From: Gammaproteobacteria bacterium
GTDB taxonomy: Bacteria; Pseudomonadota; Gammaproteobacteria; GCA-001735895
Assembly (NCBI GenBank): GCA_024225395.1
Contig: JAAEMR010000044.1
Coordinates: 8,132 to 72,131 of the forward strand
Length of the DNA stretch: 64,000 nucleotides
Direction of reading: 5' to 3'
The notes beneath the pieces are model-generated. The model was not told the origin of the DNA, ran no database searches, and worked only from the letters and a program-made list of their open reading frames with translations. Numbering within the stretch: the first letter of the stretch is position 1; each line of letters begins with the position of its first letter. The translations under genes were made by a program, and so were the position numbers. Positions 7,991-60,536 of the stretch are shown here, in pieces.

Positions 7991-8217
7991 GGTCAGATAA
8001 ATGGCCGGTGACTGGAATAGAACTGGCTGATACTCTGGAAAAAAAGAGCAAATATATCTTTTGAAAAATAAACCGGGAAGTGTCAGGTTTTTAAACTTTC
8101 TGGTTTCCCCATACCGGACAAAGTAGACAACAGGATCTTCGGTTTACAGCTAGGTCAGAGAGATTAATAATGCTTTCCATTGGTCTTAAAAATGAACAAA
8201 GGAGTCGTTCCAGTCGG
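7991..8217 (+). repeat. Interspersed non-coding repeat, copy A (about 225-nt family)
   Basis: Shares the GGTCAGA(C/T)AAA…CTGGAAT…GGGAAGTGTCAGGTTT…CCATACCGGAC…TTCGGTTTA…ATGAACAAAGGAGTCGTTCC core with copies at about 13006, 15326, 19951 and 60361. Confidence 0.6.
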
Positions 8218-8231
8218 TGCACTAGAGAACT

Positions 8232-9494
8232 TTATTTTAACTTATGGTGCCAGATATTATTCAGGTTTAGACTCTGTTCTTTTCGAGGAATAACAACAAT
8301 TCCGCTCCTCGTTACGTGATAAAGTTGCTTGTCTTTTTCCTGATCATAACCTATTACGGTGTTTGCAGGAATTTTGACGTGTTTATCGATGATGGCTCGC
8401 CGAATTTTACATCCTCGACCTATCTCTACTTTATCAAATAATATTGAATCGCTGATGTCGCAATAGCTATTAACCTTAATATTTCGCCCTAGCACGCTGT
8501 CGTAAACTTTGCTGCCGCTTAGGATAGTTCCCTCGGAGATAATGGAATCCACTGCCATGCCTCTGCGACCATCGTCATTAAAGGCAAATTTTACCGGAGG
8601 AGAGCTTAGTTCAGCAGTTCTTAGCGGCCACTGATCATTATAAAGATTAAAATTTGGTGAAATACTTTTTAAATCCATGTTTGCTTCGAAGAAATCATCG
8701 ATGTCTCCAACATCTTTCCAGTAGTCTCTTTCCTCCTGAGTAACCGACCCCGGTACTCTGTTCAGGCCGAAATCATAAGCGAAAACTTTCATCCTGTGGC
8801 ATATATCAGGCAGTATCGTTCTCCCGAAATCATGATCAGTATTCATTACCGCATCACTCTTGAGTTCTTCTAGCAGTACCTCAGTATTAAAAATGTAGTT
8901 TCCCATCGATACCAGACATTTACCAGGATCGTTCGGTATAGTAACAGGCACTTTAGGTTTTTCGTAAAACTGCTTTACCTTCCAGTCCTCATCAATCTCG
9001 AGGCAACCGAATTTATACGATTCTTCCTTGTCGATGCACAAAGCTGATACAGTTGCATCGGCATTTTTCTTTTCATGGAAGGTGATCATCTGGCTCACAT
9101 CCATACGGTAAATATGATCCGCTCCGAATATCGCAACATAGTCTGGCATGGCTCTTTCTATGAGGTGGATATTCTGGTAGATAGAGTCAGCGGTCCCTTT
9201 GTACCAACTTTCACCAACTCTCATTTGTGCAGGAACAAGAGTAATAAACTGATTTCTAAGCAGCGAGCCGAATTGCCAGCCATTTTCAAGATGCTCTACC
9301 AGTGACTGAGATTTAAACTGCGTGAGTACGTAAATCGAACAGATGCCGGAATTGACTAGATTGCTAAGGATAAAATCAATTATCCGGTATTTTCCACCAA
9401 AAGGAACTGCCGGTTTCGCCCTGTCCTTAGTCAGTGGATAGAGCCTGGTTCCTTTTCCACCGGCCATGATTAATGCTAATACACTTTTTTTCAT
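8232..9494 (-). CDS. glgC: Glucose-1-phosphate adenylyltransferase
   Basis: 420 aa. N-terminus LALIMAGGKGTRLYPLTKDRAKPAVPFGGKYRIIDFILSN and the overall length match GlgC. Confidence 0.9.
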   Translation of the reverse strand: MKKSVLALIMAGGKGTRLYPLTKDRAKPAVPFGGKYRIIDFILSNLVNSGICSIYVLTQFKSQSLVEHLENGWQFGSLLRNQFITLVPAQMRVGESWYKGTADSIYQNIHLIERAMPDYVAIFGADHIYRMDVSQMITFHEKKNADATVSALCIDKEESYKFGCLEIDEDWKVKQFYEKPKVPVTIPNDPGKCLVSMGNYIFNTEVLLEELKSDAVMNTDHDFGRTILPDICHRMKVFAYDFGLNRVPGSVTQEERDYWKDVGDIDDFFEANMDLKSISPNFNLYNDQWPLRTAELSSPPVKFAFNDDGRRGMAVDSIISEGTILSGSKVYDSVLGRNIKVNSYCDISDSILFDKVEIGRGCKIRRAIIDKHVKIPANTVIGYDQEKDKQLYHVTRSGIVVIPRKEQSLNLNNIWHHKLK

Positions 9495-9905
9495 CCTGCC
9501 TCCCGAAATTCACGTTCTTCAAAAACTTGTCAAAACGGAAATGACATTTAGTAATAATATCAGTCATGCAAAATAGTCTAATTAGGATACTAGCATAATC
9601 GAGTATTACACATACAACAAAGCTGGCATATCCGGTTTTTCTGTATATTGAGAAGCCCCTTTACAAGCTATTGAGGTGAAAACTGATATTACCGAACATT
9701 TGTGGGTTTTATTATTTAAGATATAGCTAGAAAAATTAAATGTTCACAAATATGAAATTTAATTCTCAAGTAGTGAATTATTCTGGTGGATCGATTCTGA
9801 GATACAAGGCTGCTTCTTGTTTGATTGTAGCCATCATAGTGGTGAAAAAGAAAACTAGTAGTTTAACCTGTAAAATTGCACAAAAAGTTCATATGTTTGA
9901 CTCCA

Positions 9906-9960
9906 GAATGGACAAACCGGCCGTATATGCCAGCACCAAAACCGGCTCTTCACGACCGAC
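9906..9960 (+). repeat. 3'-end fragment of the interspersed repeat family
   Basis: GAATGGACAAACCGGCCGTATATGCCAGCACCAAAACCGGCTCTTCACGACC matches the 3' terminus seen at 60478-60536. Confidence 0.4.
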
Positions 9961-10306
9961 CCACCGCGGACCTTCAGAAAAAGCCAACCTCTATGACGTT
10001 GGCTTATTATATAGGGCATAAGTACTTAATTTGTCAGAATTCTGCCTGGCCTGTTTATTATTCAGGATATGAATCTGCCGGATGTTCCTCTGATAAGCTA
10101 TTCTTCTCTTTTAAAACATTCTTCTAACGATTCAATGAGACCGCTTTAATTGATACAATCCCATGAGCAGCTTCAGCAATCGGGGCATCGGACAAATTCA
10201 TCGTGAGAGGCCGGTTTCCTCCGAGTCCCTGAGCAAACCATGGGCTGACAGGGAAAGTAAGGTGCAGTCTTTATAGACGTACTTTGGGTTTAACATCTAA
10301 CAGTGG

Positions 10307-12784
10307 TCAATAGAGATAAACCGCTCCAGCACTTTTTGCCGAATCATTACTCTGGTCACCATTGACCCCAATACTGTCGCTGCTTTCCCAGCGTGCACCG
10401 ACTGCCAGTTTCTCACCATCATCACTTAGGGTGACACTGATTCCAAAATAATCGTCATTTCCGGTATTACTCGCTTTTACGTATGCCTGCTGGCTCCAGG
10501 TAATACCGCTACGAGTAAATACATACGCGGCGCCTGTCTGGTAGCCGGTATTATTCTGGTTACCATTTAGACCTATGGCATCGCTGTCTTCATTAGCTGA
10601 ACCTGTAGCGAGGATATTACCATCGCTACTCAGCGCAATACTGCCACCAAAATAATCTCGTTCATCGGTATTGCTGGCCTTGATGTAAGCCTGTTGCTCC
10701 CAGCCAGCATCGGTATCAATAAACAGATAAACAGACCCTGAATATATAGCATCATTATTGAACTGCTCACCATCTATACCCGTGGCATTGCTGGCTTCTT
10801 TTGAGCCTACGGCAAGCGTTTTCCCATCACCACTGATAGCTAGATTACCGCCAAACATATCACTTGCTTCTGCATTGCTTGCCTTGAAATAGGTTTGCTG
10901 ACTCCAGGCGGAGCCGCTGTAGTTAAACAGGTAGGCTGCACCTGCTCCTGAGGCTGTATTATCTGCCTGATTACCATCAATTCCGGTTGCAATGCTATCC
11001 TCGCTTGCTGCACCCACGATAAGGGTATTGGCGTCATCACTCAGATCGATACTTCCTCCAAACGAGTCCCCTGCATCAGTATTGCTCGCCTTGATATAGG
11101 CCTGCTGGCCCCAGGCCGAGCCATCGTAATTAAACAGGTAGACTGCACCGGCACTTGTGGCTGTATTATCTGTCTGATTACCATTAATACCGGTGCTGGC
11201 ACTATCTTCTTTCGGAGCACCCACGGCCAGGATCGTACCGTCATTACTCAGTGCAATGCTATAACCAAACCATTCATCTGGATCAGTGTTGCTCGCTTTC
11301 ACATAGGCCTGCTGGTACCAGTTACCTGCGCTATATTCAAACACATAGGCTGCACCGGAATTTAGATGAGCGAAATCATCACCATTATTTGGATAGTCAT
11401 CGACACCGGTGCCATTACTGTCTTCATAGGGAGCACCCACGGCCAGAATGTTGCCGTCGTAGCTAAGTGCGACCTTAAGGCCAAACTGATCCTCTGCACC
11501 GGCATTATTTGCCTTGACGTATCCTCTTGGTATCCAGGTGCTTCCGCGCTTGAAGATGTACACTGCTCCCGCTGATTCCTCCACGTTGAAATTGGGTGCT
11601 TGGTCACTGTCTTCACCCGGCGCCCCCACAGCCAGGGTTCTACCGTCACCACTTAATGCAACACTACTAAAACCATCACCAGCTTGGGTATTAATGGCCT
11701 TAAGGTATCCAATCGCTTCGATCATCACTGGGACGATGCTTTCTGGTGCTGAAGATGCAAGTAAAACCCCACCTGCACCATAGGCCTCGACCATGTAGCT
11801 TGCATTGACCCAGTCAGCCAGGTGCACCGAGACCTCATCCCATGAAGAAAAATTCTCTGCACCGAAATCATAGAAATTAGTCAAAAGCTGGGTATAACCC
11901 GACGCACCATCTGGATTGACAAAAAGCTTGTAATAGACCGTGCCCTCATAATCAGACCAGTCAAACCACACTCTATTGACGTATGAGGTATCTTCTGGTT
12001 TGACGACATTAAGTTCAAGAACATCATTAACCGTTACTGTGACAAGTTGCGTGGCGAGATAAGCGCCGTCAGTCGCACCGACCTGAACCTGGTAGACGTT
12101 ATCCTGATCACCATCAAATGGCGATTCGTAATCGGGTATAGTGATGAAGCTTAACCCACCGCTGGCGCCATCAATGGTAAAATCGGCACCATCATAGCTA
12201 TTCAAGATTGTGAATATAACGTTGTCCGATTGGGGATCGGTTGCACTTATTGTGGCCACCGCTACATTATTTTCCTGAACAGAAAAATCGCTTCCTGAGG
12301 TAAACTGGGGCGCTTCGTTACCACCAACAATACCGCACATATACTCAGTAGTGGTGATCTCGCTGATATCGAGCAATCCATCGTTATCAAGATCCAGCCC
12401 GGCATCAATCTGCAGACCGTCAACGATACAATTAGCCCCGGCAGGTTCGTCACTGACTGAAACCAGTGCAGTATTACCATCAGCACCATCAGTACCATCA
12501 GCACCGTTGCACACCTTCTCAGCGCTATCGACTTCACCGTCGTCGAGCACGCCATTGCCGTTTTCATCGATGCCGGCCTCTACAAGGATGCCACCATAAG
12601 GACAGTCGATATCGTCAGCTGCCAATACAGTGGTGCGGGCGGCTGACGATAAATCGCCGCTTTCGGAGACTGGGCTATCATCGTCATTACCAGCGCTTCC
12701 ACTGCAAGCGGAAAGAAATATTAACGAGATAAATAAAACGAACTTAAAGAATTCTTCAGGGGAGTTTGAGTTTGAGCTGTCCAT
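10307..12784 (-). CDS. Surface lipoprotein with a cadherin-like domain and tandem FG-GAP-type (integrin-alpha-like) repeats
   Basis: Signal peptide plus lipobox (LSAC). Cadherin-like segment (VQENNVAVATISATDP…VTVTVNDV). Seven or more roughly 60-aa repeats of the type FG.S..LS.DG.TLAVGAP.EDS…G.NG.Q.DN….GA.Y.F. Paralogous to the C-terminal half of the 39899..45955 product. Confidence 0.7.
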   Translation of the reverse strand: MDSSNSNSPEEFFKFVLFISLIFLSACSGSAGNDDDSPVSESGDLSSAARTTVLAADDIDCPYGGILVEAGIDENGNGVLDDGEVDSAEKVCNGADGTDGADGNTALVSVSDEPAGANCIVDGLQIDAGLDLDNDGLLDISEITTTEYMCGIVGGNEAPQFTSGSDFSVQENNVAVATISATDPQSDNVIFTILNSYDGADFTIDGASGGLSFITIPDYESPFDGDQDNVYQVQVGATDGAYLATQLVTVTVNDVLELNVVKPEDTSYVNRVWFDWSDYEGTVYYKLFVNPDGASGYTQLLTNFYDFGAENFSSWDEVSVHLADWVNASYMVEAYGAGGVLLASSAPESIVPVMIEAIGYLKAINTQAGDGFSSVALSGDGRTLAVGAPGEDSDQAPNFNVEESAGAVYIFKRGSTWIPRGYVKANNAGAEDQFGLKVALSYDGNILAVGAPYEDSNGTGVDDYPNNGDDFAHLNSGAAYVFEYSAGNWYQQAYVKASNTDPDEWFGYSIALSNDGTILAVGAPKEDSASTGINGNQTDNTATSAGAVYLFNYDGSAWGQQAYIKASNTDAGDSFGGSIDLSDDANTLIVGAASEDSIATGIDGNQADNTASGAGAAYLFNYSGSAWSQQTYFKASNAEASDMFGGNLAISGDGKTLAVGSKEASNATGIDGEQFNNDAIYSGSVYLFIDTDAGWEQQAYIKASNTDERDYFGGSIALSSDGNILATGSANEDSDAIGLNGNQNNTGYQTGAAYVFTRSGITWSQQAYVKASNTGNDDYFGISVTLSDDGEKLAVGARWESSDSIGVNGDQSNDSAKSAGAVYLY

Positions 12785-13005
12785 CTTTCCACACCTATTG
12801 ATTCCAATTAACTCAATCTTAATTTGAGCAGATATTAAAAAGGTTAATACTGATTGAGGTCATGTTTGGGGGAGATTCAATCTTTAAAGAATTTAAAATT
12901 AGATGAAAGGTACTTACGGCTCTAAACTTATGTAGAAATATACTGTAAAAGATAATAATTATTTTACCAGTATCTTCCCATGGCACGTTGTACTCATGTC
13001 CGATC

Positions 13006-13225
13006 GGTCAGACAAATGACCGGTAACCTGGAATAGAATTGGATAATAACCTGGGGAAATCTGAGTAAATAAATCTTTTGTAAAGTTAAGCAGGAAGTGT
13101 CAGGTTTCAAACGTCCAGATTTCCCTATACCTGTCATAGGAAGCAATAGGGTCTTCGGTTTAAAAGCTCAATCAGCGAATCATTCCACATTTTCTGTTAG
13201 TCTCAACCATGGACTTAGCTGACAT
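13006..13225 (+). repeat. Interspersed non-coding repeat, copy B
   Basis: Same conserved core and orientation as copy A. Lies between a minus-strand adhesin gene start and a plus-strand secreted-protein gene. Confidence 0.6.
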
Positions 13226-13380
13226 AGAAAGTTTTCAATAAAATAGCTTAACCAAGTAACTAATCTACCACATTCTGGATTGTGATTCTCTGGTTGATAT
13301 TGGCGAACAGGCCTTTTTACCTATTGATAAGCTCCTTCTTCGGTTAGAATGTTTTTTTTTAAAACTAATGGAATGAACCA

Positions 13381-14061
13381 ATGAATAGCAAACTTTCTGT
13401 AGCTTTAGTATTACTATTATTATCACCTGTTACCTGGGCTATCGATCACACTGGGACTATTCTGGAAACCATGAATTCTGGTGGATATACCTATGCCAAA
13501 ATCAAGGCAAAGCAGAAAGAATTCTGGATAGCCGGTTCTAGTGCCGTGGTCAAGGTTGGCGATACTATTAGCTTTAATGAGCAAATGAAGATGCATAACT
13601 TTACCAGTAAAACTCTCAATCGTACCTTTAAGGATATAATGTTTGTAGGTGGAATTACTCAGGGAAATAGCGCCGAGAATGTCTCCTCTGTCTCTGCAAC
13701 CTCGGTACATGGCAAAATTTCTGCTCCAGTTGCTAAAGTAGATAAAGCCACTAAAGCCGAAGGTGGATATACCGTTGCTGAACTGTTTAGTAAAAAGTCT
13801 GAATTAAGCGGCAAAAAAGTAAAAGTTCGTGGCACTGTTGTTAAAGTTTCTAACGCTATTATGAAGACAAACTGGATTCATATTCAGGATGGTACGGGTG
13901 CGATGGGTAGCGATGATATTATCTTTCGTGCACCGACGGCCACCGCTAATGTCGGAGACGTCGTTATTGCCTCTGGTACTTTAGTCACAGATCAGGATTT
14001 TGGATATGGTTACAAATATGCAGTGATTGTAGAAGGTGCTTCTTTTGAAATCAGTAAATAA
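13381..14061 (+). CDS. Secreted protein with two OB-fold-like (BOF/YgiW-like) halves; function unknown
   Basis: Signal peptide (…SPVTWA). Two internally similar halves with the pattern GGYT…K.K…V…G.VVKV… Assignment is tentative. Confidence 0.4.
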   Translation: MNSKLSVALVLLLLSPVTWAIDHTGTILETMNSGGYTYAKIKAKQKEFWIAGSSAVVKVGDTISFNEQMKMHNFTSKTLNRTFKDIMFVGGITQGNSAENVSSVSATSVHGKISAPVAKVDKATKAEGGYTVAELFSKKSELSGKKVKVRGTVVKVSNAIMKTNWIHIQDGTGAMGSDDIIFRAPTATANVGDVVIASGTLVTDQDFGYGYKYAVIVEGASFEISK

Positions 14062-15046: not shown

Positions 15047-15091
15047 GGATTTACTCCTGACCAAAATAGCGCAATGTAATAAAGCATTGCT

Positions 15092-15118: not shown

Positions 15119-15325
15119 AAAACCTTACCTTTAGACGAGTGGCTTTTCATCTAGCAGTTGAATTATTGTATATGATATGGGATATCGAACAGGTTCACAT
15201 ACAAAATAGAATATCATTTTGGAAGTAACTGGGATCATAGAATTTAATATATAGAAAGTTCAAACTCCATAAAAAAAGGAAAATTTTCTACGGCTGGTTT
15301 CTCCACTTTGTAAGTATTCACTATT

Positions 15326-15546
15326 GGTCAGACAAACGACAGGTGCCTGGAATCGAAGTAGATTGTATTCTGGAAAAATAAGAGCTAAAACCTTTTGAAG
15401 AATTAACCTGGAAGTGTCAGGTTTAAGCTTCCTGAATTCTCCATACCGGACGTAGGAGGCCATAGCACATTCGGTTTAAAGTTAAACCACAGAAATAGTC
15501 AACTATAACCATCAGGCTTAATCATGGACTAATGAGTCATTCAGGT
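15326..15546 (+). repeat. Interspersed non-coding repeat, copy C
   Basis: GGTCAGACAAACGACAGGTGCCTGGAAT…CCTGGAAGTGTCAGGTTTAAGCTTCCTGAATTCTCCATACCGGACGTAGGAGGC…TTCGGTTTAAAG…ATGGACTAATGAGTC. Lies about 290 nt upstream of the PKD-protein gene. Confidence 0.6.
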
Positions 15547-15836
15547 ATTGGTTTAAACACTAAATTTCTGATATTCCTGTTCGACATTGACACCTAAACT
15601 GATGGGCAAGGTGCTGGGTATCGTTTACCGCTCGAATGCATCCCACCTCATCAAAAAAGCAGGGCTGACTCAAAAAATGCCAAAATCCAGTGCGACAACG
15701 AACTTGATACCCGCAATACCCGTTTGAACAGCTGTCCAATACCATTGGATTTAAGGAAATGTATCGTTTATTCTTCTTTTACTTTACGTACATGCCCTCT
15801 TGATTTGTTCCATGATATTGTGAGAATGCTAAAACC

Positions 15837-19705: not shown

Positions 19706-19942
19706 ATGGACATGCCAAAAGATGCCAAGATTGAGATTATTATTGATTCCTCGCTGCTGAAACATTTCACAGAGAATCTGAATAGGCTGAATTCCGGCAA
19801 AACGCCGGAAGATGTTATTGCTGGGGTCATTACGACCATCCTTGACGGCTCGTCCTTTCCGCTGAAGGTAAAGCGGACAGGAGAGCAGACCATCCACATA
19901 GGCTATCACTTCCGTTCCTTTTCCCAACCGTTTTTTGAGTAA
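19706..19942 (+). CDS. Small hypothetical protein (78 aa)
   Basis: ATG start with coding-like composition. No confident family assignment. Confidence 0.3.
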   Translation: MDMPKDAKIEIIIDSSLLKHFTENLNRLNSGKTPEDVIAGVITTILDGSSFPLKVKRTGEQTIHIGYHFRSFSQPFFE

Positions 19943-19950
19943 TCACAATT

Positions 19951-20174
19951 GGTCAGACAAACGACCGGTGCCTGGAATCAAAGTGGATGATAATCTGGAA
20001 AAATCCGAGCTTACAACTATTTGAAAAATTTAACTGGAAGTGCCAGGTTTCAACTTCCTGAATTCTCCAAACTGGACGTAGGTGGCGGTAGGCTTTCGGT
20101 TAGCAATTAAGCCAAAGAGATTATTAATAATTTCACTTAGTCTTAAAGATGGACGAAGCGGTCGTTCATGAAGG
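19951..20174 (+). repeat. Interspersed non-coding repeat, copy D
   Basis: GGTCAGACAAACGACCGGTGCCTGGAAT…ACTGGAAGTGCCAGGTTTCAACTTCCTGAATTCTCCAAACTGGACGTAGGTGGC…TTTCGGTTAG…ATGGACGAAGCGGTCGTTCATG. Confidence 0.6.
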
Positions 20175-20378
20175 TATTAGGAGGGGTTTTTCTCTACCCA
20201 AACCAGGTTCAATAAAGCTTTTATGGGATTTTCTGTTCCCTCGGTAAATGCTTAGTTAGTCAGCCCTGAAAAATACGCCAAGCTATTGATTATTATTAAT
20301 AAATCACTAAAAACAGATACCCCTTTCGAACAGGAATAGTAAAATAGTAGCTCAGTTTCTGGTCGAAATGGTGAAATA

Positions 20379-20597
20379 ATGCTGATCAATAGTAGTAACG
20401 ATGCGCATCAACCCAGTTTATCTGGAAATGACTTATTGCAGCAGCTTGATCCAGCTGACCCATTGCTCCAATTATCCAGCGTTATTCCCTGGTCTGACTT
20501 TGATCAGGCCTTTACAAAGCATTACACCCAAGGGATTGGAGCGCCCAGCAAGCCAATCAGGCTGATGGTCGGTTTGTTAATACTCAAGCAGCTTTGA
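20379..20597 (+). CDS. IS5-family transposase, N-terminal part (orfA; DUF772-like)
   Basis: …PWSDFDQAFTKHYTQGIGAPSKPIRLMVGLLILKQL is the typical N-terminus of IS5/InsH-like transposases. Confidence 0.7.
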   Translation: MLINSSNDAHQPSLSGNDLLQQLDPADPLLQLSSVIPWSDFDQAFTKHYTQGIGAPSKPIRLMVGLLILKQL

Positions 20598-20622
20598 GAA
20601 CCTCAGTGATGAATCGGTTGTC

Positions 20623-21384
20623 TTGCAGTGGAAGCGTAACCCCTGCTATCAGGCTTTTTGTGGGCTCACGGAGTACCAACCCAGACCGCCCTGTCACAGT
20701 ACCGAACTGGTGCATTTTAGAAAACGCATTGGTAAAGTCGGTATCGAACAGATATTCCAGATGAGTGTACGCCTGCATGGCCGTCTGGCGCAGGAAGATA
20801 CGGTTAATATTGATACCACGGTTCAGGAAAAGAACATCACCTATCCGACGGATGCCAGGCTTGCCATCAAGACCATTAACCACAAGTGTATTGCATCGGT
20901 AAGGGCAAAGATCATAAGCAGTATGAGTATGGCAATAAAGTATCCATCTCCTGTAGTGCAAAAAAGTAACCTGATTGTCGGTGTCGTCAGCCATGAGCTG
21001 AACCTGCATGATATTCATACTCTGCCAGAGGTGTTAAAACACATCGAAGAGTCGAGAGGAAAAGCGGTTAAGACTGCCGTCTGTGATCGAGGCTATCGGG
21101 GTAAAAAGGAAGTCAATGGAACACGTATCATGCTACCGGCAAAAGGGCTGAAAAGAGACAATCGATATCAGCGAGATAAAAAAAGAAAGCAGTGTAAAAG
21201 GCGAGCAGCCATCGAGCCGATCATTGGTCATTTAAAATCAGACTTTCGGCTCTCCAGAAACTTTTTAAAAGGTGTTACAGGTGATGAAATTAATTTGCTG
21301 ATGGCAGCCACTGCCTGGAATCTAAAAAAATGGCTAATCGCCTTTTTTGGGCTGTCATTATTACCCGGAAAAATCTATTTTTAA
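20623..21384 (+). CDS. IS5-family DDE transposase, catalytic part (orfB)
   Basis: Continues orfA in a different frame. DDE_Tnp_1-type features are present (…DTTVQEKNITYPTDARL…AVCDRGYRGK…). The split suggests either a programmed frameshift as in the IS427 group or an inactivating frameshift. Confidence 0.75.
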   Translation: MQWKRNPCYQAFCGLTEYQPRPPCHSTELVHFRKRIGKVGIEQIFQMSVRLHGRLAQEDTVNIDTTVQEKNITYPTDARLAIKTINHKCIASVRAKIISSMSMAIKYPSPVVQKSNLIVGVVSHELNLHDIHTLPEVLKHIEESRGKAVKTAVCDRGYRGKKEVNGTRIMLPAKGLKRDNRYQRDKKRKQCKRRAAIEPIIGHLKSDFRLSRNFLKGVTGDEINLLMAATAWNLKKWLIAFFGLSLLPGKIYF

Positions 21385-21995
21385 TAAAAATTTAGCCTGT
21401 CAGAAAAAGATGGAAAGAATATTCGGGCCTGGCTTACCAGCCTGGAATTTGGAGGAATATCAATCAGCCCCAATTCTTTTTTCAGGGCTGACTAAATACT
21501 AAAATCAAAGAATCTGTGCTGTTAAACAGGGATGTGCTTATGCTGCGAGGCCAGGGGAAGAGAGCCATCGCGAGGGTCGGATCAGCGAGAGTAAAGAGTT
21601 ATTCCCCCATTTTTTCAAGCAGCAGTTGGTTATTGCAAAAATTGAGGAGCTAGAGATGGCAGTCTCCATGGTCCGTAATTTTAGTCACAACTATACAGAT
21701 CTGTCTATCTGGGCGTAGCGGCATGCATCGCACCTTGCTCCCTTTTTAAATTATTACTATTTTGCCAAATGGATTGTATTTTGCAAATTGGGAATCAGGT
21801 TTATTGATTGTGTTGGTCAATTAGGAGTATATCTGAAAACTAGGATATCTACTCGGCAACTGCTCCATACGCTACTCACCAACGTTATGGCGGACTATGC
21901 TCGGACAGACTGTCTTCATAAAATACAGTTATATTAATAGTGGAATAATTCTTGCTTATTTCCATATTGCATATATTAAAAAAGGAAGTCATTTA

Positions 21996-36553: not shown

Positions 36554-36569
36554 TCAGGGAGGATAAAAA

Positions 36570-42900: not shown

Positions 42901-45900
42901 TGTGCAGGAAGCTTATATTAAGTCAGCCAGTCCGGATGCCAATGATTTTTTTGGCGTGGGTGATTTTAGCACTGGCTCAAACGGTGGCCATACTGCAAAA
43001 GGACTAGCTATGTCGGGTAATACGCTGGCCATTGCTGTCTCGGGTGAAGACAGCAATTCATCATGGAGCACAACGAACAATAGTTATGCAGAATCGGGTG
43101 CGGTATATATTTTTACCCGAAATATCAACGATAACTGGTCTCAGCAAGCTTATATAAAACCAGATTTAAAAGGTGCTGGTGACCGTTTTGGTAGCAGTCT
43201 TGACCTGGATGGAGATACATTGGTTGTGGGAGCAATAGAAGAGGATTCAAACTCTGCTGGACCTGGTAATAATAGCTCAACAAACTCTGGTGCAGCTTAT
43301 GTTTTCACTCGCACTGGTACCAGTTGGTCACAGCAGGCTTTCCTGAAAGCATCTAATAGTGATGCCTATGATGAGTTTGGAATCAGTGTAGCCGTATCAG
43401 GTGATACGATAGCCGTAGGTGCTCTTGAAGATAGTAGTGCTCAAGGTATTAATGGAAGTCAGACAGATAACGGATCAGTCCAGTCAGGAGCTGTTTATAT
43501 CTTTAGCCGAGAGGCGGATACCTGGTCACAACAGGCTTATATCAAATCGTCAGATTCATCAATAAAATACTGGTTTGGAATTTCTGTATCGCTTGACGGG
43601 CATACCCTGGCGGTTGGTGCAAATCAGGAAAATGGACCAAGTTCTGGTAATGGGGCTGCTTATATCTTTACACGTAGTGGTTTCACCTGGACAGAACAGG
43701 CTATTATTCATGCATCTAATGCAGAGACATCAGATGAATTTGGTAAGTCGGTGAGTATTGATAATGACACTCTGGTCGTTGGTGCACCAGGTGAAGACAG
43801 TAACTCTACAGAAATAGATACTGGGTTGGATGATAATTCTGCCAGTGGTGCCGGTGCAGCTTATGTATTTACCCGTGATAGTGCGGGCATCTGGACACAA
43901 CAGGCTTATCTGAAAGAATCAGCACCTGGACTGGCTTATAATTTTGGTGACAGTGTTTCAGTTTCAAGAAATGCCATTGTTGTAGGAGCCAATGTCTACC
44001 TGCGTAATGATGCAAGCTGGTCTCATTTTGCCACTTACCAACCGGCCAACCCTGATGTCTTAGACTTATTTGCTGCCAATGTTGCCTTATTTGATGAAAC
44101 CATAATAGCCGGTAGCCGACAGGAAGACAGTAATGCTAGTGGTATCAATGGTGATGAAACAGATAATTCATTATCATCCTCCGGTGCAGCTTATGCATTT
44201 AGAATGCCTTCAGATAGCAATACGACATTACATAATAATGCCAATCTTAATGATCTATTACTATCCAATGGCACTCTTTCTGCAGAGTTTGATTCAGCAA
44301 CACTGACTTATACGGCGTCTGTTGGGTATACCACAACAGCCATATCATTAATTCCCTCTCTTGCGGATAAAGATGCCACTGTTACGGTCAATGGTGACTC
44401 TGTAACCTCTAACAAATCTACAGACCCAATAAGTTTAGATGAAGGGCAAAATGAAATTTCTATCACGGTGCTGGCCGAAGACATGTCAACATCACAGACT
44501 TACCTTGTTACTGTGACACGTTTATCAGCCAGTGAATTTGCACAGCAGGTTTATCTTAAAGCATCCAATACCGAGTTGGGTGATAGCTTCGGTTTCAGTG
44601 CTGCTATATCGGGAGATACATTAGTGGTTGGTGCTCCCTATGAGGACAGTCTGGTTTTCGGTAGCTCGGTACAGTTTCATGTGACAGATGAACATGACAA
44701 TTCGGAATTAAACTCTGGAGCGGCTTATGTCTTTGTTCGTGACAGTGATGGAGCATGGAGTCAACAGGCTTATCTGAAAAGTGCTAACTCAAATGCCGGT
44801 GACTACTTTGGTTACAGTGTTGATATTTCAGGAGATACGCTGGTTGTAGGGGCTTATGGTGAAGATAATGCTTATACCGGTATTAATCCTACCAGTGAAA
44901 ATTATGGTAGTGCTAGCAGTCAAAATTCCGGTGCAGCTTATGTTTTCTTAAGAGATGGTGAAGGCATATGGACTCAACAGGCTTATATTAAGGCTAAAGG
45001 CAGTACAAAAAAAGCAGCCGATGATTATTTTGGATACAATGTAACCTTGTCAGGGGATACCCTGGCCGTAAGTCTGCACAATGAAGATAGCTACTCATTG
45101 GGTGATAATCATGGTGCGGTTGAAATCTATGAAAGAACAGGTTCAATCTGGGCCTTCAGTACAACGTTAAATTCCTCTAATGCTGAAGCAGGCGATACAT
45201 TTGGTTATGCGATAGATTTATCTAACGATACGCTTGTCGTCAGCGCAAGACATGAAGATAGTAATGCAACCGGGGTAAATGCTGACGAGTCCAATAATGA
45301 CATGGCTGCATCAGGGGCTGTTTACGTTTTTGTGAAAACGACCGGGGTATGGAGCCAGCAAGCCTATATCAAAGCATCAAATACTGATATAGCGGATATT
45401 TTTGGCAGCAGTGTAGCAATATCCGGAGATATACTGGTCGTGGGTGCTGCATATGAGGAGAGTAGTTCGACGGGCATTAATCAGGATGAATCAGATAACT
45501 CATTAGGCAGTGGAGCAGGGGCTGTTTATGTATTTGAACGTAATACAGGAGTATGGGTTCAGCAAGCCTACATCAAAGCATCTAATACAAATGAGTATGA
45601 CCAGTTTGGTAGCAAAGTAGCTGTATCAGGTGAAACTATCGCCGTTAGTGCAAGAAGGGAAAGAAGTAGTGCCACAGGTATCGGGGGTATTCAAACTGAT
45701 AACTCAGCTGATTACTCTGGCGCGACCTATATTTTTAATCGAGATGTAGATGATAACTGGAGCCAGTCCGCCTATATCAAAGCATCCAATACAGAACAGG
45801 AAGACTACTTTGGTTCCGGGATAGCGCTGGGTGCTGACACCCTCTTTGTTGGAGCAAATGGAGAAGCAAGTGATACAGTGGGTATTAACGGAAGCCAGCA

Positions 45901-45955
45901 AAATGGGACAGGAACCAATTCATCTGGAGCGGGTTATATTTTTTATATTCCCTAG
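39899..45955 (+). CDS. Giant multidomain surface protein (2018 aa) with TSP3-like Ca-binding repeats, a Calx-beta domain, three cadherin-like beta-sandwich domains and about 14 FG-GAP-type repeats
   Basis: DTDSDGLPD…DSDNNGWSDFDE (TSP3-like repeats). Calx-beta segment (…VDFDLTSLSGDSAVSGVDYEAMSGTLSIPAGE…). Three roughly 95-aa repeats (L…S.G.L.P.F…T.YT..V…LTPT….A.ITVNG…). C-terminal half built of FG.SV..SGDTL.VGA..EDS…GIN…DNS….GA.YVF repeats. Confidence 0.8.
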   Translation: MRNKLIAGLVMACQLYFLVGVISAEAASPLFVEHSNTNLWIVDKNTGQMSAYRHRNGVNFWLESFDDTVYTLGSNEVALINNMTNSSDTLSSDLAPISLAGLGEADLDTAGNNGMLALTVTPESGSYNETIMVEMAVNVNLTNEGPVTLNWTINGDSSGNSTGSSTLVPASELHDGRLYTRFYLVLDDHYSITVKLLNTAQNEIASKTVTYDLTSTDPKGKRRDTDSDGLPDLVELDIGLDPLTGDWKTDSDNNGWSDFDEWLRSANLGTDGLPLDSDNDGWSDFDEDLRGTEKNDLVQTLVGSSAPAADTEQFRNTLRLFQDIPAADRLYEVEYLIDVTATEIQADTQWRHFSSYIPGSEIIFDSDELLTIDDMDMAGSNKASIPPRRTLQLFATLITNDTFSHLRLPASHSQVLDILGINEQTINVGQPDESEQTRNWHFLHWLETQADLTPVNYDAGNSWTTVDEWKTAYIAYLGNNLVVSKSLQMNLTNTTNTSLLLNVLANEYELAGGLDLPVFNSRHGISQQIFDQLKQSLAIRENGRTLDDVYADLLTLGTSNVPFGNSRAVVQSGIQNMPWQQDSLHYLLEILSDDSADMKLLAHISRLALFADGIAELDTDSTLGLIFSDSDADTIKNNTEILTTVFSQSLYPWLSDSDGDLVLDAVDPCPLDELNSCQLETPVLSVSGPGNYNVTIIRGEGDYIVVTVQLNQANEQDVTVDFDLTSLSGDSAVSGVDYEAMSGTLSIPAGEISASIIINILPKDNIGTENFHLILSNPQNATLGQTEYAINVETEPGDNPNLQSLLVSAGSLDPVFSTYTQLYHVRVNASDATIKLTPTAEDANATITVNGIAVTSGTESQAIALRAGSEDDITVIVTAESGQLMRIYTVSVIRPVPISDNADLGNLSLSSGLLSPGFDSATLNYTAAVGFGTTSITLTPTAANENADITVNGNITASGNASNSIDLDEGDNIIDVDLLAEDGVTTKTYRVTITRATATQFVQEAYIKSASPDANDFFGVGDFSTGSNGGHTAKGLAMSGNTLAIAVSGEDSNSSWSTTNNSYAESGAVYIFTRNINDNWSQQAYIKPDLKGAGDRFGSSLDLDGDTLVVGAIEEDSNSAGPGNNSSTNSGAAYVFTRTGTSWSQQAFLKASNSDAYDEFGISVAVSGDTIAVGALEDSSAQGINGSQTDNGSVQSGAVYIFSREADTWSQQAYIKSSDSSIKYWFGISVSLDGHTLAVGANQENGPSSGNGAAYIFTRSGFTWTEQAIIHASNAETSDEFGKSVSIDNDTLVVGAPGEDSNSTEIDTGLDDNSASGAGAAYVFTRDSAGIWTQQAYLKESAPGLAYNFGDSVSVSRNAIVVGANVYLRNDASWSHFATYQPANPDVLDLFAANVALFDETIIAGSRQEDSNASGINGDETDNSLSSSGAAYAFRMPSDSNTTLHNNANLNDLLLSNGTLSAEFDSATLTYTASVGYTTTAISLIPSLADKDATVTVNGDSVTSNKSTDPISLDEGQNEISITVLAEDMSTSQTYLVTVTRLSASEFAQQVYLKASNTELGDSFGFSAAISGDTLVVGAPYEDSLVFGSSVQFHVTDEHDNSELNSGAAYVFVRDSDGAWSQQAYLKSANSNAGDYFGYSVDISGDTLVVGAYGEDNAYTGINPTSENYGSASSQNSGAAYVFLRDGEGIWTQQAYIKAKGSTKKAADDYFGYNVTLSGDTLAVSLHNEDSYSLGDNHGAVEIYERTGSIWAFSTTLNSSNAEAGDTFGYAIDLSNDTLVVSARHEDSNATGVNADESNNDMAASGAVYVFVKTTGVWSQQAYIKASNTDIADIFGSSVAISGDILVVGAAYEESSSTGINQDESDNSLGSGAGAVYVFERNTGVWVQQAYIKASNTNEYDQFGSKVAVSGETIAVSARRERSSATGIGGIQTDNSADYSGATYIFNRDVDDNWSQSAYIKASNTEQEDYFGSGIALGADTLFVGANGEASDTVGINGSQQNGTGTNSSGAGYIFYIP

Positions 45956-49505: not shown

Positions 49506-50288
49506 TTATCTCAGGTTTATCCGGGTATTTGAAGGATTTAGCTCAACGGCCCCCTGTTTCAAGTCAGTAACCCATTCAACATCAAGTTCTTCGATCCCGT
49601 TAAATGCCTCGAATAGACCGGACATGTCGATATACTTTAACTGACTCGTTTTATTGCAATGGTACTGGATTGATACCTCAAAGTCAGCGTGTTCTGATGT
49701 TGGTTCGTCGTGATCATTATGCTGATCGTTATGATCCTCGTGCTGATCGTTGTGATCATTATGCTGATCGTCGTGATTCTCGTGCTGATCGTTGTGATCG
49801 TTGTGATCGTTGTGATCGTTGTGATCGTTGTGATCGTCGTGATCCTCGTGCTGATCGTTGTGATCGTCGTGATCCTCGTGCTGATCGTTGTGATCGTCGT
49901 GATCTTCGTGCTGATCGTTGTGGGCCATCTCTTCATCAGAATGGTTTGGTTGATGATTGATCAGTGAACTTTCTATATTGACTGGTTGTAATTTACATTC
50001 AGCAGCAATATCCAGACTCAACAGTTGATTAGCCTGTTTCAGTTGTTGAACAACATGTTGCAGAGTTTGTTTGTCTTTTGCATTGACGGCCTGGTGTTCA
50101 AAACCGGTTAAATTCATTGCTGGAGTATCCAGTTCAATGTCAAGATTTCCATTAGACCAGGCGAATTTTAGTTCAGCATGACCGTGTTGATGGGCATCAT
50201 GTTTGCGCTGATGAGTATCTGCAAAAGTTGCCGATGCGCCTGAAAGAAGTGATATCAGTAATAAAAATCTCATAGTTGATCCTGTCAA
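49506..50288 (-). CDS. Periplasmic His/Asp-rich metal-binding protein (ZrgA/DUF2796-like), probable zinc-binding
   Basis: Signal peptide. Central stretch of about 75 aa of (DHNDQHEDHD)n. Position between a Zur box and the ABC genes. Confidence 0.55.
   Translation of the reverse strand: MTGSTMRFLLLISLLSGASATFADTHQRKHDAHQHGHAELKFAWSNGNLDIELDTPAMNLTGFEHQAVNAKDKQTLQHVVQQLKQANQLLSLDIAAECKLQPVNIESSLINHQPNHSDEEMAHNDQHEDHDDHNDQHEDHDDHNDQHEDHDDHNDHNDHNDHNDHNDQHENHDDQHNDHNDQHEDHNDQHNDHDEPTSEHADFEVSIQYHCNKTSQLKYIDMSGLFEAFNGIEELDVEWVTDLKQGAVELNPSNTRINLR
49690..49925 (+). repeat. Tandem 9-bp and 30-bp imperfect repeats inside the His-rich protein CDS
   Basis: (GATCGTTGT)n and roughly 30-bp TCGTGCTGATCGTTGTGATCGTCGTGATCC units encode the HND/HEDHDD repeats. 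Seen directly in the sequence. Confidence 0.6.
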
Positions 50289-50372: not shown

Positions 50373-50440
50373 AGGCAGGTCTAGCCTCGTTTGCCAATAA
50401 GTCACATATAAGTTGATTAAAGTTTTACCTGAAGGAAATA

Positions 50441-51274: not shown

Positions 51275-51405
51275 GTTGGCTTCCTTAATTCCTGGTTTCT
51301 CCATACCTGTCAAAGGAAGAGCTAAGGCCTTCTGATTACAGTTTAAACACCGAATATGTCAACAATTACTGTCAGGCTTAATCATGGAAGTAGCTGCCAT
51401 TGCTG
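51275..51405 (+). repeat. Partial copy (3' half) of the interspersed repeat family
   Basis: …CTGGTTTCTCCATACCTGTCAAAGGAAG…GTTTAAACACCGAAT…TCAGGCTTAATCATGGAAGTAGC parallels the 3' half of copy C, including TCAGGCTTAATCATGGACTAATGAG. Confidence 0.4.
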
Positions 51406-51608
51406 TTTATCCATATATGACCAGTTTTGGTATTCAGGCTTTAGATGCTCGAAATCTTGTAAAACGAGATCGCTTTTCCAGCACTGGACATTTAAAGAGA
51501 ACCCAAAGGTCTCAACCTGGTACTTCATACGAAACATTTCAGAATTGAATCTGCATTGTGTGCTGCTGGCACTCATACACCAGAATCGATATTCTCCCTG
51601 TAAAGACT

Positions 51609-57012: not shown

Positions 57013-57065
57013 CCGGCATAAAAGTTGGGTTTTAATGTGAAACTTTCCGTTTCACCATTTGTGAT

Positions 57066-57105
57066 TCGATCGTGCTACGCAAACTATCTGTAGCACGATC
57101 AACCT
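57066..57105 (+). terminator. Intergenic hairpin between phnD and phnC (partial terminator or mRNA-stabilising stem-loop)
   Basis: GATCGTGCTAC-gcaaactatct-GTAGCACGATC (11-bp perfect stem) followed by AACCTTTTAT. Coordinates are approximate. Confidence 0.4.
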
Positions 57106-57122
57106 TTTATGCAGGAAATTTT

Positions 57123-57890: not shown

Positions 57891-58681
57891 GCGTTACTCC
57901 TGTTAAAGACTATAAAAATCCGTTTAGCATAAACTGGTTAACCAGCGGGCTGTGGATTTTAGTTGCTGGTTATCTGCTTTATACCGTGCAATCCCTGGGG
58001 CTAAGCTGGACGCGCTTTAGTGAGGGGTTGCATCATGCCGGTACTTTACTGGATAGAATGTTTCCACCCAATTTCTCCCGTTGGGAATTATTGTTCAGTG
58101 GGTTGGCTGAGAGTCTGGAAATTGCGGTGATATCCAGTGTTGTGGGCATATTTTTCTCGTTGTTTTTTGGTTTATTTGCAGCACGTAATTTAATGTCGAA
58201 CCTGGTGACTGTCCCTGTACGTGGTTTTATTGCCGTATGTCGCTCCTTTCATCCTATTATTGTCGCAATTCTATTTGTAAAAAGCGTAGGATTTGGAGCT
58301 TTGGCTGGTATTCTTACCTTAATTATTGCGTCGATCGGTTTTATTGCAAAATTATTTGCAGAAGCCATCGAAGAAATCTCACTGAAACAGGTTGAAGCAA
58401 TACGTGCAACCGGTGCCAGCTTTACCAGCGTTATCCTGTTTTCAGTATTACCCCAGGTATTCTCACGTTTTATCGGTTTTTCTACTTACCAGCTGGATTC
58501 AAATTTACGTAACTCGACGATGGTTGGTATTGTCGGGGCAGGTGGTCTGGGTGGCACGCTCTTCTCAGCCTTTCAACGATTTGATTATGATTTTGTCTCG
58601 GCTATTTTAATCACCATAATTGCATTGATTCTATTCTGGGAATTTCTGTCCAATGTTGTCCGGAGTATTTTCAGTGAGTGA
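57878..58681 (+). CDS. phnE: Phosphonate ABC transporter permease
   Basis: 267 aa polytopic membrane protein with a PhnE-type EAA-like region (EAIRATGAS). Overlaps phnC by 13 bp. Confidence 0.8.
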
Positions 58682-59483
58682 AACAGACAGTAAAATAGAT
58701 CACCACTGGCAACGCTTTACTCTAAAAAAGCAATTATCCCGCTATGCGGTCTATTTAAGCTTTTTAATAGCCTTGGTATTATCCATACGCACCGTGGAAG
58801 TCATACCAGAATTTTTTTATGATGCGCCAGAACAGATTGCAGATCTGTTTGCAAGAATGTGGCCAATAAGTTTTGAGTTTTATCAAATTTCGGTTCATGA
58901 AGCGATGATCGAAACTCTTAACATCGCTACTCTGGGTACATTGGTTACACTCATTTTTGCTGTACCTCTGGCATTTATGAATGCGTCTAACATCGTTGCC
59001 TCACCCTGGTCTCACTGGATCTCACGTTTTTTCCTGGTGTCATCACGTTCGATAAATTCGTTGATCTGGGCATTATTGTTTGTTGCTATATTTGGTCCCG
59101 GAGTCATTGCCGGTGTATTGGCAATTGCGTTTCGTTCAGTAGGGTTCATCGGAAAGCTGTTATCCGAAGCGATAGAAGAAATTAACATGGGATCGGTAGA
59201 AGCGTTACGGGCTACAGGTGCCCCCTGGGGAGCCGTATTACTGAAAGGATACTGGCCTCAGGTGAAACCGGCTTTTTTCAGTATAGTGCTGTTTCGATGG
59301 GATATAAATGTTAGAGAATCAGCGGTTTTAGGGCTTGTTGGTGCGGGCGGAATCGGTATCGTGCTGAATAATTCCATGAATCTGTTTGAGTGGCAACAGG
59401 TGGCTATGTCACTGTTAGCCATATTTGTCGTTGTGATAATGGCGGAGATTGTTGTCGTCAACATACGTAAGCGTTTAATCTGA
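58653..59483 (+). CDS. phnE: Phosphonate ABC transporter permease (second PhnE paralog)
   Basis: 276 aa. Paralogous to the preceding permease (EALRATGAP…). Overlapping start. Confidence 0.8.
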   Translation: MLSGVFSVSETDSKIDHHWQRFTLKKQLSRYAVYLSFLIALVLSIRTVEVIPEFFYDAPEQIADLFARMWPISFEFYQISVHEAMIETLNIATLGTLVTLIFAVPLAFMNASNIVASPWSHWISRFFLVSSRSINSLIWALLFVAIFGPGVIAGVLAIAFRSVGFIGKLLSEAIEEINMGSVEALRATGAPWGAVLLKGYWPQVKPAFFSIVLFRWDINVRESAVLGLVGAGGIGIVLNNSMNLFEWQQVAMSLLAIFVVVIMAEIVVVNIRKRLI

Positions 59484-59797
59484 TAAAGCTTTGTTACAGA
59501 ACCTAAAAAAATAGTTTTTTTTAGGCGTCACGGTGAAAGCGAAGCCAACATGGCCGGCATTATCGTCAGTGATTCGTCAGTGGGCTGCCAAAATTATGGT
59601 TTGACCGATAAGGGATGATTACAGGTTAAGACCACTACCGAAAATTTTAAGCAGCAACACATCAGTTTGATAATCAGTTCAGATTTTTTGAGAGCCAGGT
59701 AACCTGGCCATCATCATGACATGATGCTGAATTTACCGGCTGAATTTTTGCCATTCCGTATTTTCAGACCCTCCATCTTGAATCAGGCAATAAGCCA

Positions 59798-60085
59798 TTG
59801 AACGAGTTATTCAACCCGGTTGCCGTAATGTGTGGCGATGCTGGGTATGGGCTTGCTATGCTATGCCGCTATGCGAACCAGTTTCGATTACTGCTCTCCA
59901 GTCTGGGTTATATCCTGCTGGAAAGTATCCGTCGCCTGGCTTTGAAAGGGACTGAGCTGGAAAATCCACAAGCCGGTGCGCTCAGGTTAAAGTTGTTAAA
60001 AATTGGTACGGTTATTTTACATAATACCCGTCGAATACGTTTCCTGTTATCCAGTCATTACCCTTATCGGATTTATTCAGATCGG
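59798..60085 (+). pseudogene. C-terminal fragment of an IS4/IS1380-superfamily DDE transposase (remnant)
   Basis: …ANQFRLLLSSLGYILLESIRRLALKGTELENPQAGALRLKLLKIGTVILHNTRRIRFLLSSHYPY resembles the conserved C-terminus of IS1380-type transposases. There is no upstream catalytic domain, and the ORF then reads through non-homologous sequence. Confidence 0.45.
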
Positions 60086-60360
60086 TGGCGGCCAGATTGC
60101 AATCGGGATAAGGGAAAAGAGTGCTGTCCCGGCACGCTGAAAAATAATGGGGAAGGGGATGTTGCGCCTGGAATCTGTCAAAAGAGCTCAACAGCGATTT
60201 CAGATGCAAAAAAAATGAATCAGATGGCTGCTCTCTTTGCCATGAGCAAAATGCTGACTACCTATGAAACATTCAGGCTAGAAAGTACAGTCCGATATCT
60301 TGGTATAGAAGTAGATGATGCTCTGGAAATATCTGAGTTAACTGATAGTTGATGCAATTA

Positions 60361-60536
60361 ACCAGGAAGTGCAAATCTGGTACTTCCTGACTTCTCCATA
60401 CCGGACGTAGGGGGAGGGGAGTAATAAGTTTTGGCTAACTCCTGTAACGTCACCTGAATTTTCGATTAGTCGCTGAAATGGACAAACCGGTCGTACCTGC
60501 CAACATTGAAACAGGCTCTTCACGACCCTTCCGATC
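60361..60536 (+). repeat. Interspersed non-coding repeat, copy E (lacks the 5' part of about 50 nt)
   Basis: …CAGGAAGTGCAAATCTGGTACTTCCTGACTTCTCCATACCGGACGTAGGGGGAGG…GAAATGGACAAACCGGTCGTACCTGCC…GGCTCTTCACGACC. Confidence 0.55.

Follow-up and report, generated by a model that had tools for sequence, protein, structure and literature searches.

Derivatives of the type of cis-mobilizable elements (CIMEs) can recombine in trans and accrete in tandem, in one orientation. Cryptons, which are eukaryotic DNA transposons encoding only a tyrosine recombinase, are thought to move via a circular intermediate and site-specific integration, and FimB and FimE are recombinases of ~200 amino acids (aa). The repeats described here show likenesses to each of these systems. 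They are dispersed in a 64-kb stretch of DNA, referred to below as the window, from an uncultured gammaproteobacterium (contig JAAEMR010000044.1 of assembly GCA_024225395.1, positions 8,132 to 72,131). The repeat unit measures 235-270 nucleotides (nt) in its short form and contains short broken frames only. We consider it probable that the repeats are miniature non-autonomous derivatives of a ~1.0-kb element whose sole gene, int, codes for a 208-aa tyrosine recombinase with little beyond the catalytic domain. There is little doubt about the derivation of the repeat from that ~1-kb element; for its movement in trans by site-specific recombination, a claim drawn from sequence comparison, the chances are about even.

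Relation of the repeat to a small-recombinase element

A profile hidden Markov model (HMM) built from four full copies (A-D) was run against the window with nhmmer. The matches were confined to the + strand and gave seven copies, four of them full (A-D) and three partial (E, F and G; Table 1). The right two-thirds of the repeat correspond to the last ~17 codons of int together with the 3' flank of the gene, and the left ~48 nt to the left end (LE) of the ~1-kb element; decayed coding sequence makes up about one third of the unit. The LE consensus matched L104:5818-5858 (loci are given L numbers), ~145 nt upstream of an int remnant, with z=8.4, vs z ~1 for the int coding sequence. The idea that LE is itself decayed int coding sequence was rejected because the match falls upstream of int and there is none to the coding region. 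LE was also found upstream of int, or with the 5' untranslated region (UTR) of int, in L104a, L049b, L136b, L137 and L139.

The coding origin of part of the unit is visible in the longer copies. The open reading frame (ORF) 59798-60352 ends in frame inside copy E as ..ESTVRYLGIEVDDALEISELTDS, and L072b reads ..LLGHTKLE..YLGIEVDDALEISELTDC; the in-frame sequence ..LLGHTKLE..YLGIEVDDALEISELTD*, present in the 5' part of copy E and in L072b, is the C-terminus of PF00589 integrases. Copy E matched aa 184-207 of the Methylomonas int at 83% (tblastn).

In L123 and L124, int is nearly complete in length but broken, and the right part of the repeat comes after it. Three intact genes for 208-aa proteins related to the int of L123 were identified: P0122, which is 97% identical to it (in L137 and L138), P0128 (92%; in L136) and P0255 (85%; in L139 and L140). 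The intact genes have LE and the 5'UTR upstream and the right part of the repeat downstream (L137:~2344-3346, L138, L136, L139). The intact element (L137:2344-3346) is ~1.0 kb in length, with element positions 1-1007 and int at 197-823 (627 nt). Its left half consists of LE (~50 nt), a ~140-nt 5'UTR, int and a hairpin (CCAGGAAGTG..CTTCCTGG), and its right half of a CCATACCGGTCAT / CTCCAGACCGGTCATAG box, ~70 nt, a GGACAAACCGGTCGT / GGACATACCGGTCGT box and a ~35-nt tail ending in ACGACCC. The source of L138, JGI sample 3300017613, likewise yielded strains with 99.5% identity to the window; for the contigs (L132) the range is 99.2-99.8%.

The derivatives were mapped onto the coordinates of the intact L137 element. 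In the short family, LE is retained and the right part starts at element position 770-773, i.e., at int codon ~192. L104b retains positions 57-302 and 714-882, L104a resumes at 795, and L136b retains 59-182 and 855-971, while copy E corresponds to 749-1003 and fragment G to 952-1002. Thus int was lost at least four independent times with both ends retained (short family, L104b, L104a and L136b). All ten full short copies, from at least four genomes, have one single junction between LE and codon ~192, which argues that the short form spread after the deletion. So-called half copies were considered as evidence of a crossover near the hairpin and rejected: L049b, L104a and L136b carry LE and the 5'UTR further upstream, and are other deletion forms.

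Each element contains three ACCGGT-centred boxes, A(C/T)GACCGGT: forward in LE, reversed in the middle (TACCGGTCAT, ~105-190 nt downstream of the LE box) and reversed in the right end (ACCGGTCGT). A prediction made earlier from the window alone (the original prediction) had included the LE and right-end boxes. The LE and middle boxes form a 9-12-nt inverted repeat in all nine full copies, with 85% of cells paired across these copies vs 30-48% when the boxes were slid, and in L104a the inverted repeat is a perfect one of 12 nt (CTATGACCGGTA/TACCGGTCATAG). LE (GACAAAC-GACCGGT) and the right end (GACAAAC-CGGTCGT) have a direct GACAAAC and the ACCGGT-centred box in common, which may or may not correspond to a directly repeated attL/attR-type core. 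The ACCGGT boxes are the likeliest candidates for putative recombinase-binding sites. The hairpin that follows int comprises 8 pairs, with 83% of cells paired over nine copies without covariation; in L104 it is a perfect 11-nt inverted repeat. An apparent pair of terminal inverted repeats (TIRs), TGGCA-CTTTGT / TGGCAGCTTTGT, was rejected, since it fails across copies. The stretch ACTTCCT..ATACC may bear some resemblance to the oriIS of IS91/ISCR elements.

At full length, the protein is a stand-alone ~208-aa tyrosine recombinase, and only its residues ~40-200 match Xer-type catalytic domains. Alignment to XerH and to a Pyrococcus XerC-like recombinase (4a8e) showed that the R..HxxR..H..Y residues are kept. 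No specific NCBIfam family, FimB/FimE included, and no close solved structure were found for this protein, and the NCBIfam integron-integrase models gave 24.6 and 21.4 bits against cut-offs of 265 and 435. The family is very large (>8000 proteins at E<1e-20; 853 clusters at 50% identity with E<=1e-30 and 8086 with E<=1e-10), is present in 481 PLSDB plasmids and is annotated merely as 'integrase'. A 47-aa C-terminal query gave >3000 protein matches, of which the best 120 were all short (33-82 aa) PF00589 'integrase/XerC' fragments. Most database entries of the family are fragments, comprising C-terminal pieces of 33-82 aa, fusions of the N- to the C-terminus (P0004, P0084) and two-stretch matches, and ~1-kb contigs are likewise prevalent. 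Because the entries are dominated by such fragments and contigs, internal deletion and assembly breaks seem to be frequent across the whole integrase family and not in this lineage only. In the literature, no described element with a small catalytic-domain-only recombinase was found.

Copies within and outside the window

The copies in the window were recovered both by repeat detection and by the profile HMM, which bears out the repeat family claimed in the original prediction and its placement on the + strand throughout. A 28-nt core motif had three matches in the window vs none in 100 shuffles. The coordinates given previously were correct within a few bases, except that the left border was placed ~22 nt too far to the right and copy E, whose start is at ~60278, was begun at 60361. 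In copies A-D the left border of the unit, set by alignment with the flanks, is CAC(T)TTGTA at 7969, 12984, 15304 and 19929, respectively; the right boundary was set by comparison of L072a with L083. The statement that every copy is intergenic does not hold strictly for copy E because it overlaps the 3' end of ORF 59798-60352. The expectation of hundreds of copies per genome was an over-extrapolation, as five of the seven copies are clustered within 7.9-20.2 kb. Proteins of the window organism include MCP4075263, MCP4075283 and MCP4075284.

Table 1. Coordinates of the repeat copies, their parts and adjacent mobile-element remnants (window positions, except for the pLM6 row)
Feature	Position	Strand	Content and support
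Copy A, full short form	7969..8222	+	nhmmer 7987-8222, E 2.7e-69; kept in near-identical strains L132-L135
Copy A, LE motifs	7991-7997; 8001-8009		GGTCAGA; ATGGCCGGT
Copy A, decayed int codons	from 8014		begin at GGAATAGAA
Copy A, hairpin	from 8074		
Copy A, CCATACCGGAC box	8109-8121		
Copy A, ATGAAC	8192		
Fragment G, right-end tail only	9907..9957	+	ATGGACAAACCGGCCGT...CTCTTCACGACC; between glgC and the FG-GAP gene
Copy B, full short form	12984..13234	+	nhmmer 13001-13234, E 4e-66; between divergent genes 10307-12784(-) and 13381-14061(+)
Copy C, full short form	15304..15553	+	nhmmer 15321-15553, E 4e-70; closest relative L094
Copy C, LE block	15304..15347	+	CACTTTGTAAGTATTCAC..TTGGTCAGACAAACGACAGGTG; with forward ACCGGT-type box
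Copy C, decayed last int codons	15349..15381	+	GIEVDCILEK* vs intact ..YLGIEVDDALEISELTDC*; frame translations
Copy C, hairpin	15408..15434	+	CTGGAAGTG..GCTTCCTG; directly 3' of the int stop
Copy C, CCATACCGGACGT box	15441..15453	+	best-conserved block in all copies, inverted repeat of the LE box; alignments
Copy C, right-end block	15524..15553	+	ATGGAC..; better-preserved copies read ATGGACAAACCGGTCGT; alignments
Copy D, full short form, right tail decayed	19929..20201	+	nhmmer 19946-20179, E 8e-70; tail similarity 20148-20198
IS5-family element, neighbour of copy D	20252..21500	+	starts ~50 nt downstream of copy D; frameshifted; intact 334 aa in L133
Copy F, right part only	51289..51408	+	CCATACCTGTC box to ATGGAA; nhmmer E 1.3e-20, model positions 112-231
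IS1380/IS4-type transposase C-terminal remnant, neighbour of copy E	59798..60277	+	outside the repeat; Pfam DDE_Tnp_1_4, aa 26-91, E 7e-18
Copy E, 5'-truncated long form	60278..60528	+	nhmmer 60292-60500, E 9e-21; last 24 int codons in frame (..ESTVRYLGIEVDDALEISELTDS*), complete 3' flank, tail ending CACGACCC
pLM6 ~110-nt element (L128-L131)	160456-160578, 25584-25675, 167961-168069, 91220-91327, 94519-94621, 20772-20830		

Fragment G gave a weak HMM match (9894-9929) and resembles the tail of copy E (60477-60527) over 51 nt, at 84% identity. All adjacent pairs of copies are co-oriented, 11 of 11 in total (six in the window, two in L049 and one each in L072, L104 and L136; p ~5e-4). Within 12 kb, the copies clustered in the window mark the borders of gene modules, and five of the six intergenic gaps between 7.8 and 20.4 kb hold a copy or fragment. 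The genes separated in this way are those for an 821-aa secreted protein, glgC, an FG-GAP protein, two small secreted proteins and a 1235-aa PKD adhesin, as well as an IS5-like element. Elsewhere, the modules between copies comprise an ATPase with a STAND-like NTPase (L072), a GntR regulator with a transporter (L104) and a GGDEF protein (L049); in L136 a five-gene module lies beside an intact int. Genes between co-oriented copies run in both directions.

Scans of sequence collections were made with the conserved 5' block, and chance matches predominated. True relatives were found in uncultured marine Gammaproteobacteria and marine metagenomes (L013/L072, L002/L083/L097, L019/L049/L103/L066, L094, L090, L065), and about 20 distinct copies are known overall, later loci included. 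The window copies are 65-77% identical to each other and no closer than to copies in other genomes; copy C is 82% identical to L094, from another metagenome. L072a and L083, which belong to different metagenome-assembled genomes, are 92.5% identical over exactly 240 nt. The stretch from CACTTTGTA to GCCATT is taken as a discrete unit because this identity stops at the 240-nt edges and the flanks are unrelated.

The window repeat had no match in PLSDB. In the Methylomonas koyamae plasmid pLM6, a conserved ~110-nt element follows int and is present six times, in both orientations. Next to it lies a duplicated module (PHB depolymerase - hypothetical - EthD - LysR), and Rfam gave no match for the element. 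Plasmids pLM6 and pFW12EY have a common right flank and diverge exactly at the left edge of this element, and the same element occurs, without int, in Methylotuvimicrobium and Paraburkholderia plasmids. These data suggest that other lineages of the integrase family also have dispersed cognate sites. For the int of pMOL30, no homology past the gene was found in other plasmids (no flank conserved). The motif of the pLM6 site resembles that of the window repeat by eye; homology is not claimed because the similarity is not significant (z<1).

Weighing of the explanations

The copies are best read as MITE-like derivatives (MITE, miniature inverted-repeat transposable element) because both ends survive in at least four deletions and because the short form, with one junction common to all its copies, is present at unrelated loci. 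A MITE-like non-autonomous element had been one of the candidates in the original prediction. This proposal gains an autonomous ~1-kb parent with the same ends and a short form spread to unrelated loci of several genomes, and has to be amended in that the parent has a tyrosine recombinase, not a DDE transposase, and in that TIRs and target-site duplications (TSDs) were looked for and not found. In such a scheme, an intact recombinase from the lineage of the element would act in trans on the short form, at the three ACCGGT-containing boxes (forward in LE, reversed in the middle and right end). Movement would consist of excision and integration, i.e., of site-specific recombination and not transposition, and circles with one copy, with or without neighbouring genes, would integrate into resident copies to give same-direction arrays. 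Mobility of the short form is suggested by its distribution. The same-direction arrays fit such accretion by site-specific recombination, and do not prove it. GC skew is mostly positive on the + strand of the window, so the co-orientation may be due either to the replication strand or to accretion by recombination.

Several observations weigh against derivation followed by movement. Comparison of LE with the reverse complement of the right end in ten copies gave z values from -1.3 to 2.9, of which only that of L072a is suggestive of TIRs. No copy-specific flanking direct repeats or TSDs, which the original prediction had proposed to look for, were found at the copy boundaries, the within-copy score being no higher than the between-copy score except in L072a. 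The lack of both is expected of a site-specific recombinase, because a tyrosine recombinase makes no target duplication. Neither excision (circle) junctions nor empty sites turned up, and no two loci carried near-identical copies; conservation along the unit was not significant block by block (363/2000 permutations), and the window copies are old, as their identities indicate. There is no intact int within the window, and an intact cognate gene (L138) comes from the sample that contains the near-identical strains. Copy B provides the sole presence/absence polymorphism found: it is missing in L132-L135, owing to a 1590-nt deletion (window 11657-13246) between CTTAA microhomologies. Site-specific excision of this copy was considered and rejected in favour of the microhomology deletion.

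The arrangement of the copies could also be that of a cassette-type gene-capture array, integron-like but independent of IntI/attC, in which the copies are recombination sites, one to each module of one or two genes, and the small recombinase excises the modules as circles and inserts them at resident sites. The co-orientation of all 11 adjacent pairs, the occupancy of five of six gaps in the 7.8-20.4 kb region, and the accessory modules between copies (L072, L104, L049; the five-gene module in L136) would all be accounted for, and the equal divergence within the array and between genomes is expected if each copy came with its own module. We nevertheless regard this explanation as unlikely. 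None of the modules recurred in a second context between copies, the genes between copies lie in either direction, and single copies also occur (E, F, L139). Moreover, intact int lies inside the unit delimited by LE and the right end, not beside an attI-like primary site, the attC core motifs RYYYAAC ... GTTRRRY are absent as a pair in copies A-D, and the recombinase scores far below the cut-off of the integron-integrase models. It is still less probable that the copies are inert relics, each the remnant of a separate full-length insertion, and that the short form never moved alone. Such relics would be old and diverged, as all copies are; several deletion derivatives are clearly independent, and databases abound in pseudogene fragments of this integrase. 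This explanation is disfavoured because it would need the same deletion to arise ten times independently, which is implausible given the identical junction of LE to codon 192 in ten short copies from at least four genomes; it is also at odds with the unrelated flanks and the sharp 240-nt boundaries.

The presence of the inverted repeat in nine of nine full copies, perfect over 12 nt in L104a, the size of the recombinase (~200 aa, that of FimB/FimE) and the position of several copies upstream of genes for secreted or adhesin-like proteins would suit invertible switches similar to fimS, in which the 10-12-nt inverted repeats of the copies (ATGACCGGTA / TACCGGTCAT) would let the recombinase flip the ~105-190-nt segment between them and phase-vary the adjacent surface-protein genes. 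We give this explanation very little credence: a single internal orientation is seen in each of the >20 copies and, for the A, C and D loci, in each of the five assemblies, the segment contains no conserved promoter-like site, the conserved unit reaches well past the inverted repeats, and no FimB/FimE family appeared among the NCBIfam matches. Hardly credible, too, is a family of structured small RNAs, the other candidate of the original prediction, or a cis-regulatory RNA (terminator or mRNA stabiliser), although the intergenic, same-strand copies do have hairpins, and their right part is the natural 3'UTR of int. Rfam 15 gave no matches at the gathering score for the window and six loci, and under permissive settings (up to E<=10) only chance snoRNA matches at E>3; ARAGORN found no tRNA or tmRNA in the window. 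These negatives agree with the earlier statement that no known riboswitch, tRNA or tmRNA is recognisable. The RNAalifold consensus was weak (-11.5 kcal/mol over 247 columns) and contained no compensatory pairs, and the covariation check proposed earlier gave 0.147 vs 0.147 in shuffles (pair counts from nine full sequences, hence of low power). Single-sequence folding z-scores (A -1.27, C -0.85, D -1.54) indicated no excess stability, and no promoter-like or terminator-like sites recurring in the copies were detected in a scan. The small-RNA reading is unsupported because there is no covariation, excess folding energy or conserved promoter or terminator, and the unit is in part decayed coding sequence; the repeat is not an RNA gene.

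Neighbouring genes and comparison with known systems

Two of the copies have remnants of insertion sequences (ISs) as neighbours (Table 1). The IS5-family element downstream of copy D has matches to Pfam DUF772 and DDE_Tnp_1 in L132/L133. A homologous IS in L065 (307-1575, 5862-6470; tblastx L065:307-1575) lies ~57 nt from a copy, on the opposite side of the repeat, and this IS may prefer insertion beside the repeat. ORF 59798-60352 is chimeric, joining the C-terminal end of an IS1380/IS4-type transposase to the final 24 codons of int, so that one mobile-element remnant is truncated by another.

The FG-GAP gene 10307-12784 (-) contains tandem units of 204-207 nt (window 10380-11321, 11018-13247). 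In L132-L135 it is shortened to 236 aa by the 1590-nt CTTAA deletion and the loss of two repeat units, and there is an 11-nt indel (ATTGTGATTCT) at ~13279. Three consecutive giant genes (2194, 1110 and 2018 aa, +) with internal FG-GAP-like repeats occupy 29969-45955; these repeats are related to those of 10307-12784 on the opposite strand (inverted repeats I1-I3). No copies of the ~225-nt repeat are present in this 26-kb stretch of giant genes. At 49666-49952, dense repeats with 9/12-nt periodicity (17 overlapping copies, 107-nt register) lie inside ORF 49506-50288 (-), which probably codes for a low-complexity repeat protein.

Outside the window, intact small int genes of two lineages are located at most ~2 kb from reverse-transcriptase genes (L114:341-2628 and 3867-6624; L139:7809-8609), and that of L114 is flanked by a reverse-transcriptase and ATPase pair and by a SIR2-domain gene. 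A link of the small integrases to defence islands is possible. In L136 (L136:1191-8056), the region shortly upstream of the intact small int consists of a phage-satellite-like block (terminase small subunit, capsid, PriCT_2 primase and a 381-aa integrase) and then a RelE/MqsA toxin-antitoxin pair, which takes the place of the left end of the element.

If one lineage acts as a discrete ~1-kb element with miniatures, this would give a concrete, testable role to a very large recombinase family, and would also account for gene calls of the 'hypothetical short XerC/integrase' kind and for breaks in metagenome assemblies. If its recombinase builds same-direction arrays, it would provide a second route, beside integrons, to modular gene capture in environmental bacteria. 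A bolder proposal, which we hold to be unlikely, is that the elements form an undescribed class of bacterial mobile DNA, IS-sized, with a nearly catalytic-domain-only tyrosine recombinase as the sole gene, a bacterial counterpart of Cryptons. Their miniatures would then be portable recombination sites that allow modules of 1-5 genes (adhesins, signalling, defence-like) to be excised and to be stacked in one orientation, in a form of gene capture analogous to that of integrons without IntI/attC.

By kind, the repeat is a MITE/CIME-like element with an unusual parent and an unexplained strict co-orientation. Like MITEs and their parent ISs, it is short (<~500 bp), gene-less, multi-copy and intergenic, has arisen by internal deletion of an autonomous element with the ends retained, and presumably depends on the enzyme of its parent in trans. 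Unlike in MITEs, this enzyme is a tyrosine recombinase and not a DDE or HUH transposase, TIRs and TSDs are lacking, and the copies are strictly co-oriented per contig. With CIMEs and other att-flanked derivatives of integrative and conjugative or mobilizable elements (ICEs/IMEs), the repeat shares the origin from a tyrosine-recombinase element that has lost its recombinase and kept both recombination ends. However, CIMEs are kilobases long, descend from large conjugative or mobilizable elements and use one specific attB (often a tRNA gene or the 3' end of a gene), whereas here the parent is a ~1-kb single-gene element, and the derivative has ~240 nt and occupies many loci. Palindromic elements of the REP/BIME (repetitive extragenic palindrome/bacterial interspersed mosaic element) or IS200/IS605-type PATE (palindrome-associated transposable element) kinds differ in that the gene associated with the present repeat is a PF00589 tyrosine recombinase, with no HUH gene linked.

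The attC sites of integrons and of CALINs (clusters of attC sites lacking integron-integrases) are likewise co-oriented and imperfectly palindromic (~60-140 nt, compared with ~240 nt here), border small gene modules (of 1-5 genes in the present case), and are linked to a tyrosine recombinase that is often not nearby. In contrast to integrons, the recombinase has neither the length (208 vs ~320 aa) nor the extra domain of IntI, R''/R' core motifs are missing, the genes between the sites run both ways, and the recombinase gene lies inside the repeat unit. The fimS invertons with FimB/FimE are similar in the combination of a ~200-aa recombinase with short inverted repeats around a segment of 100-300 nt near surface-protein genes, but the present repeat, for which none of the copies or assemblies showed the inverted variant, has a multi-copy unit larger than the inverted repeats and a recombinase not specifically related to FimB/FimE. 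Cryptons are eukaryotic, several kb in length and equipped with larger recombinases; the likeness, which is one of architecture only, lies in a small element without TIRs that carries a tyrosine recombinase as its sole gene.

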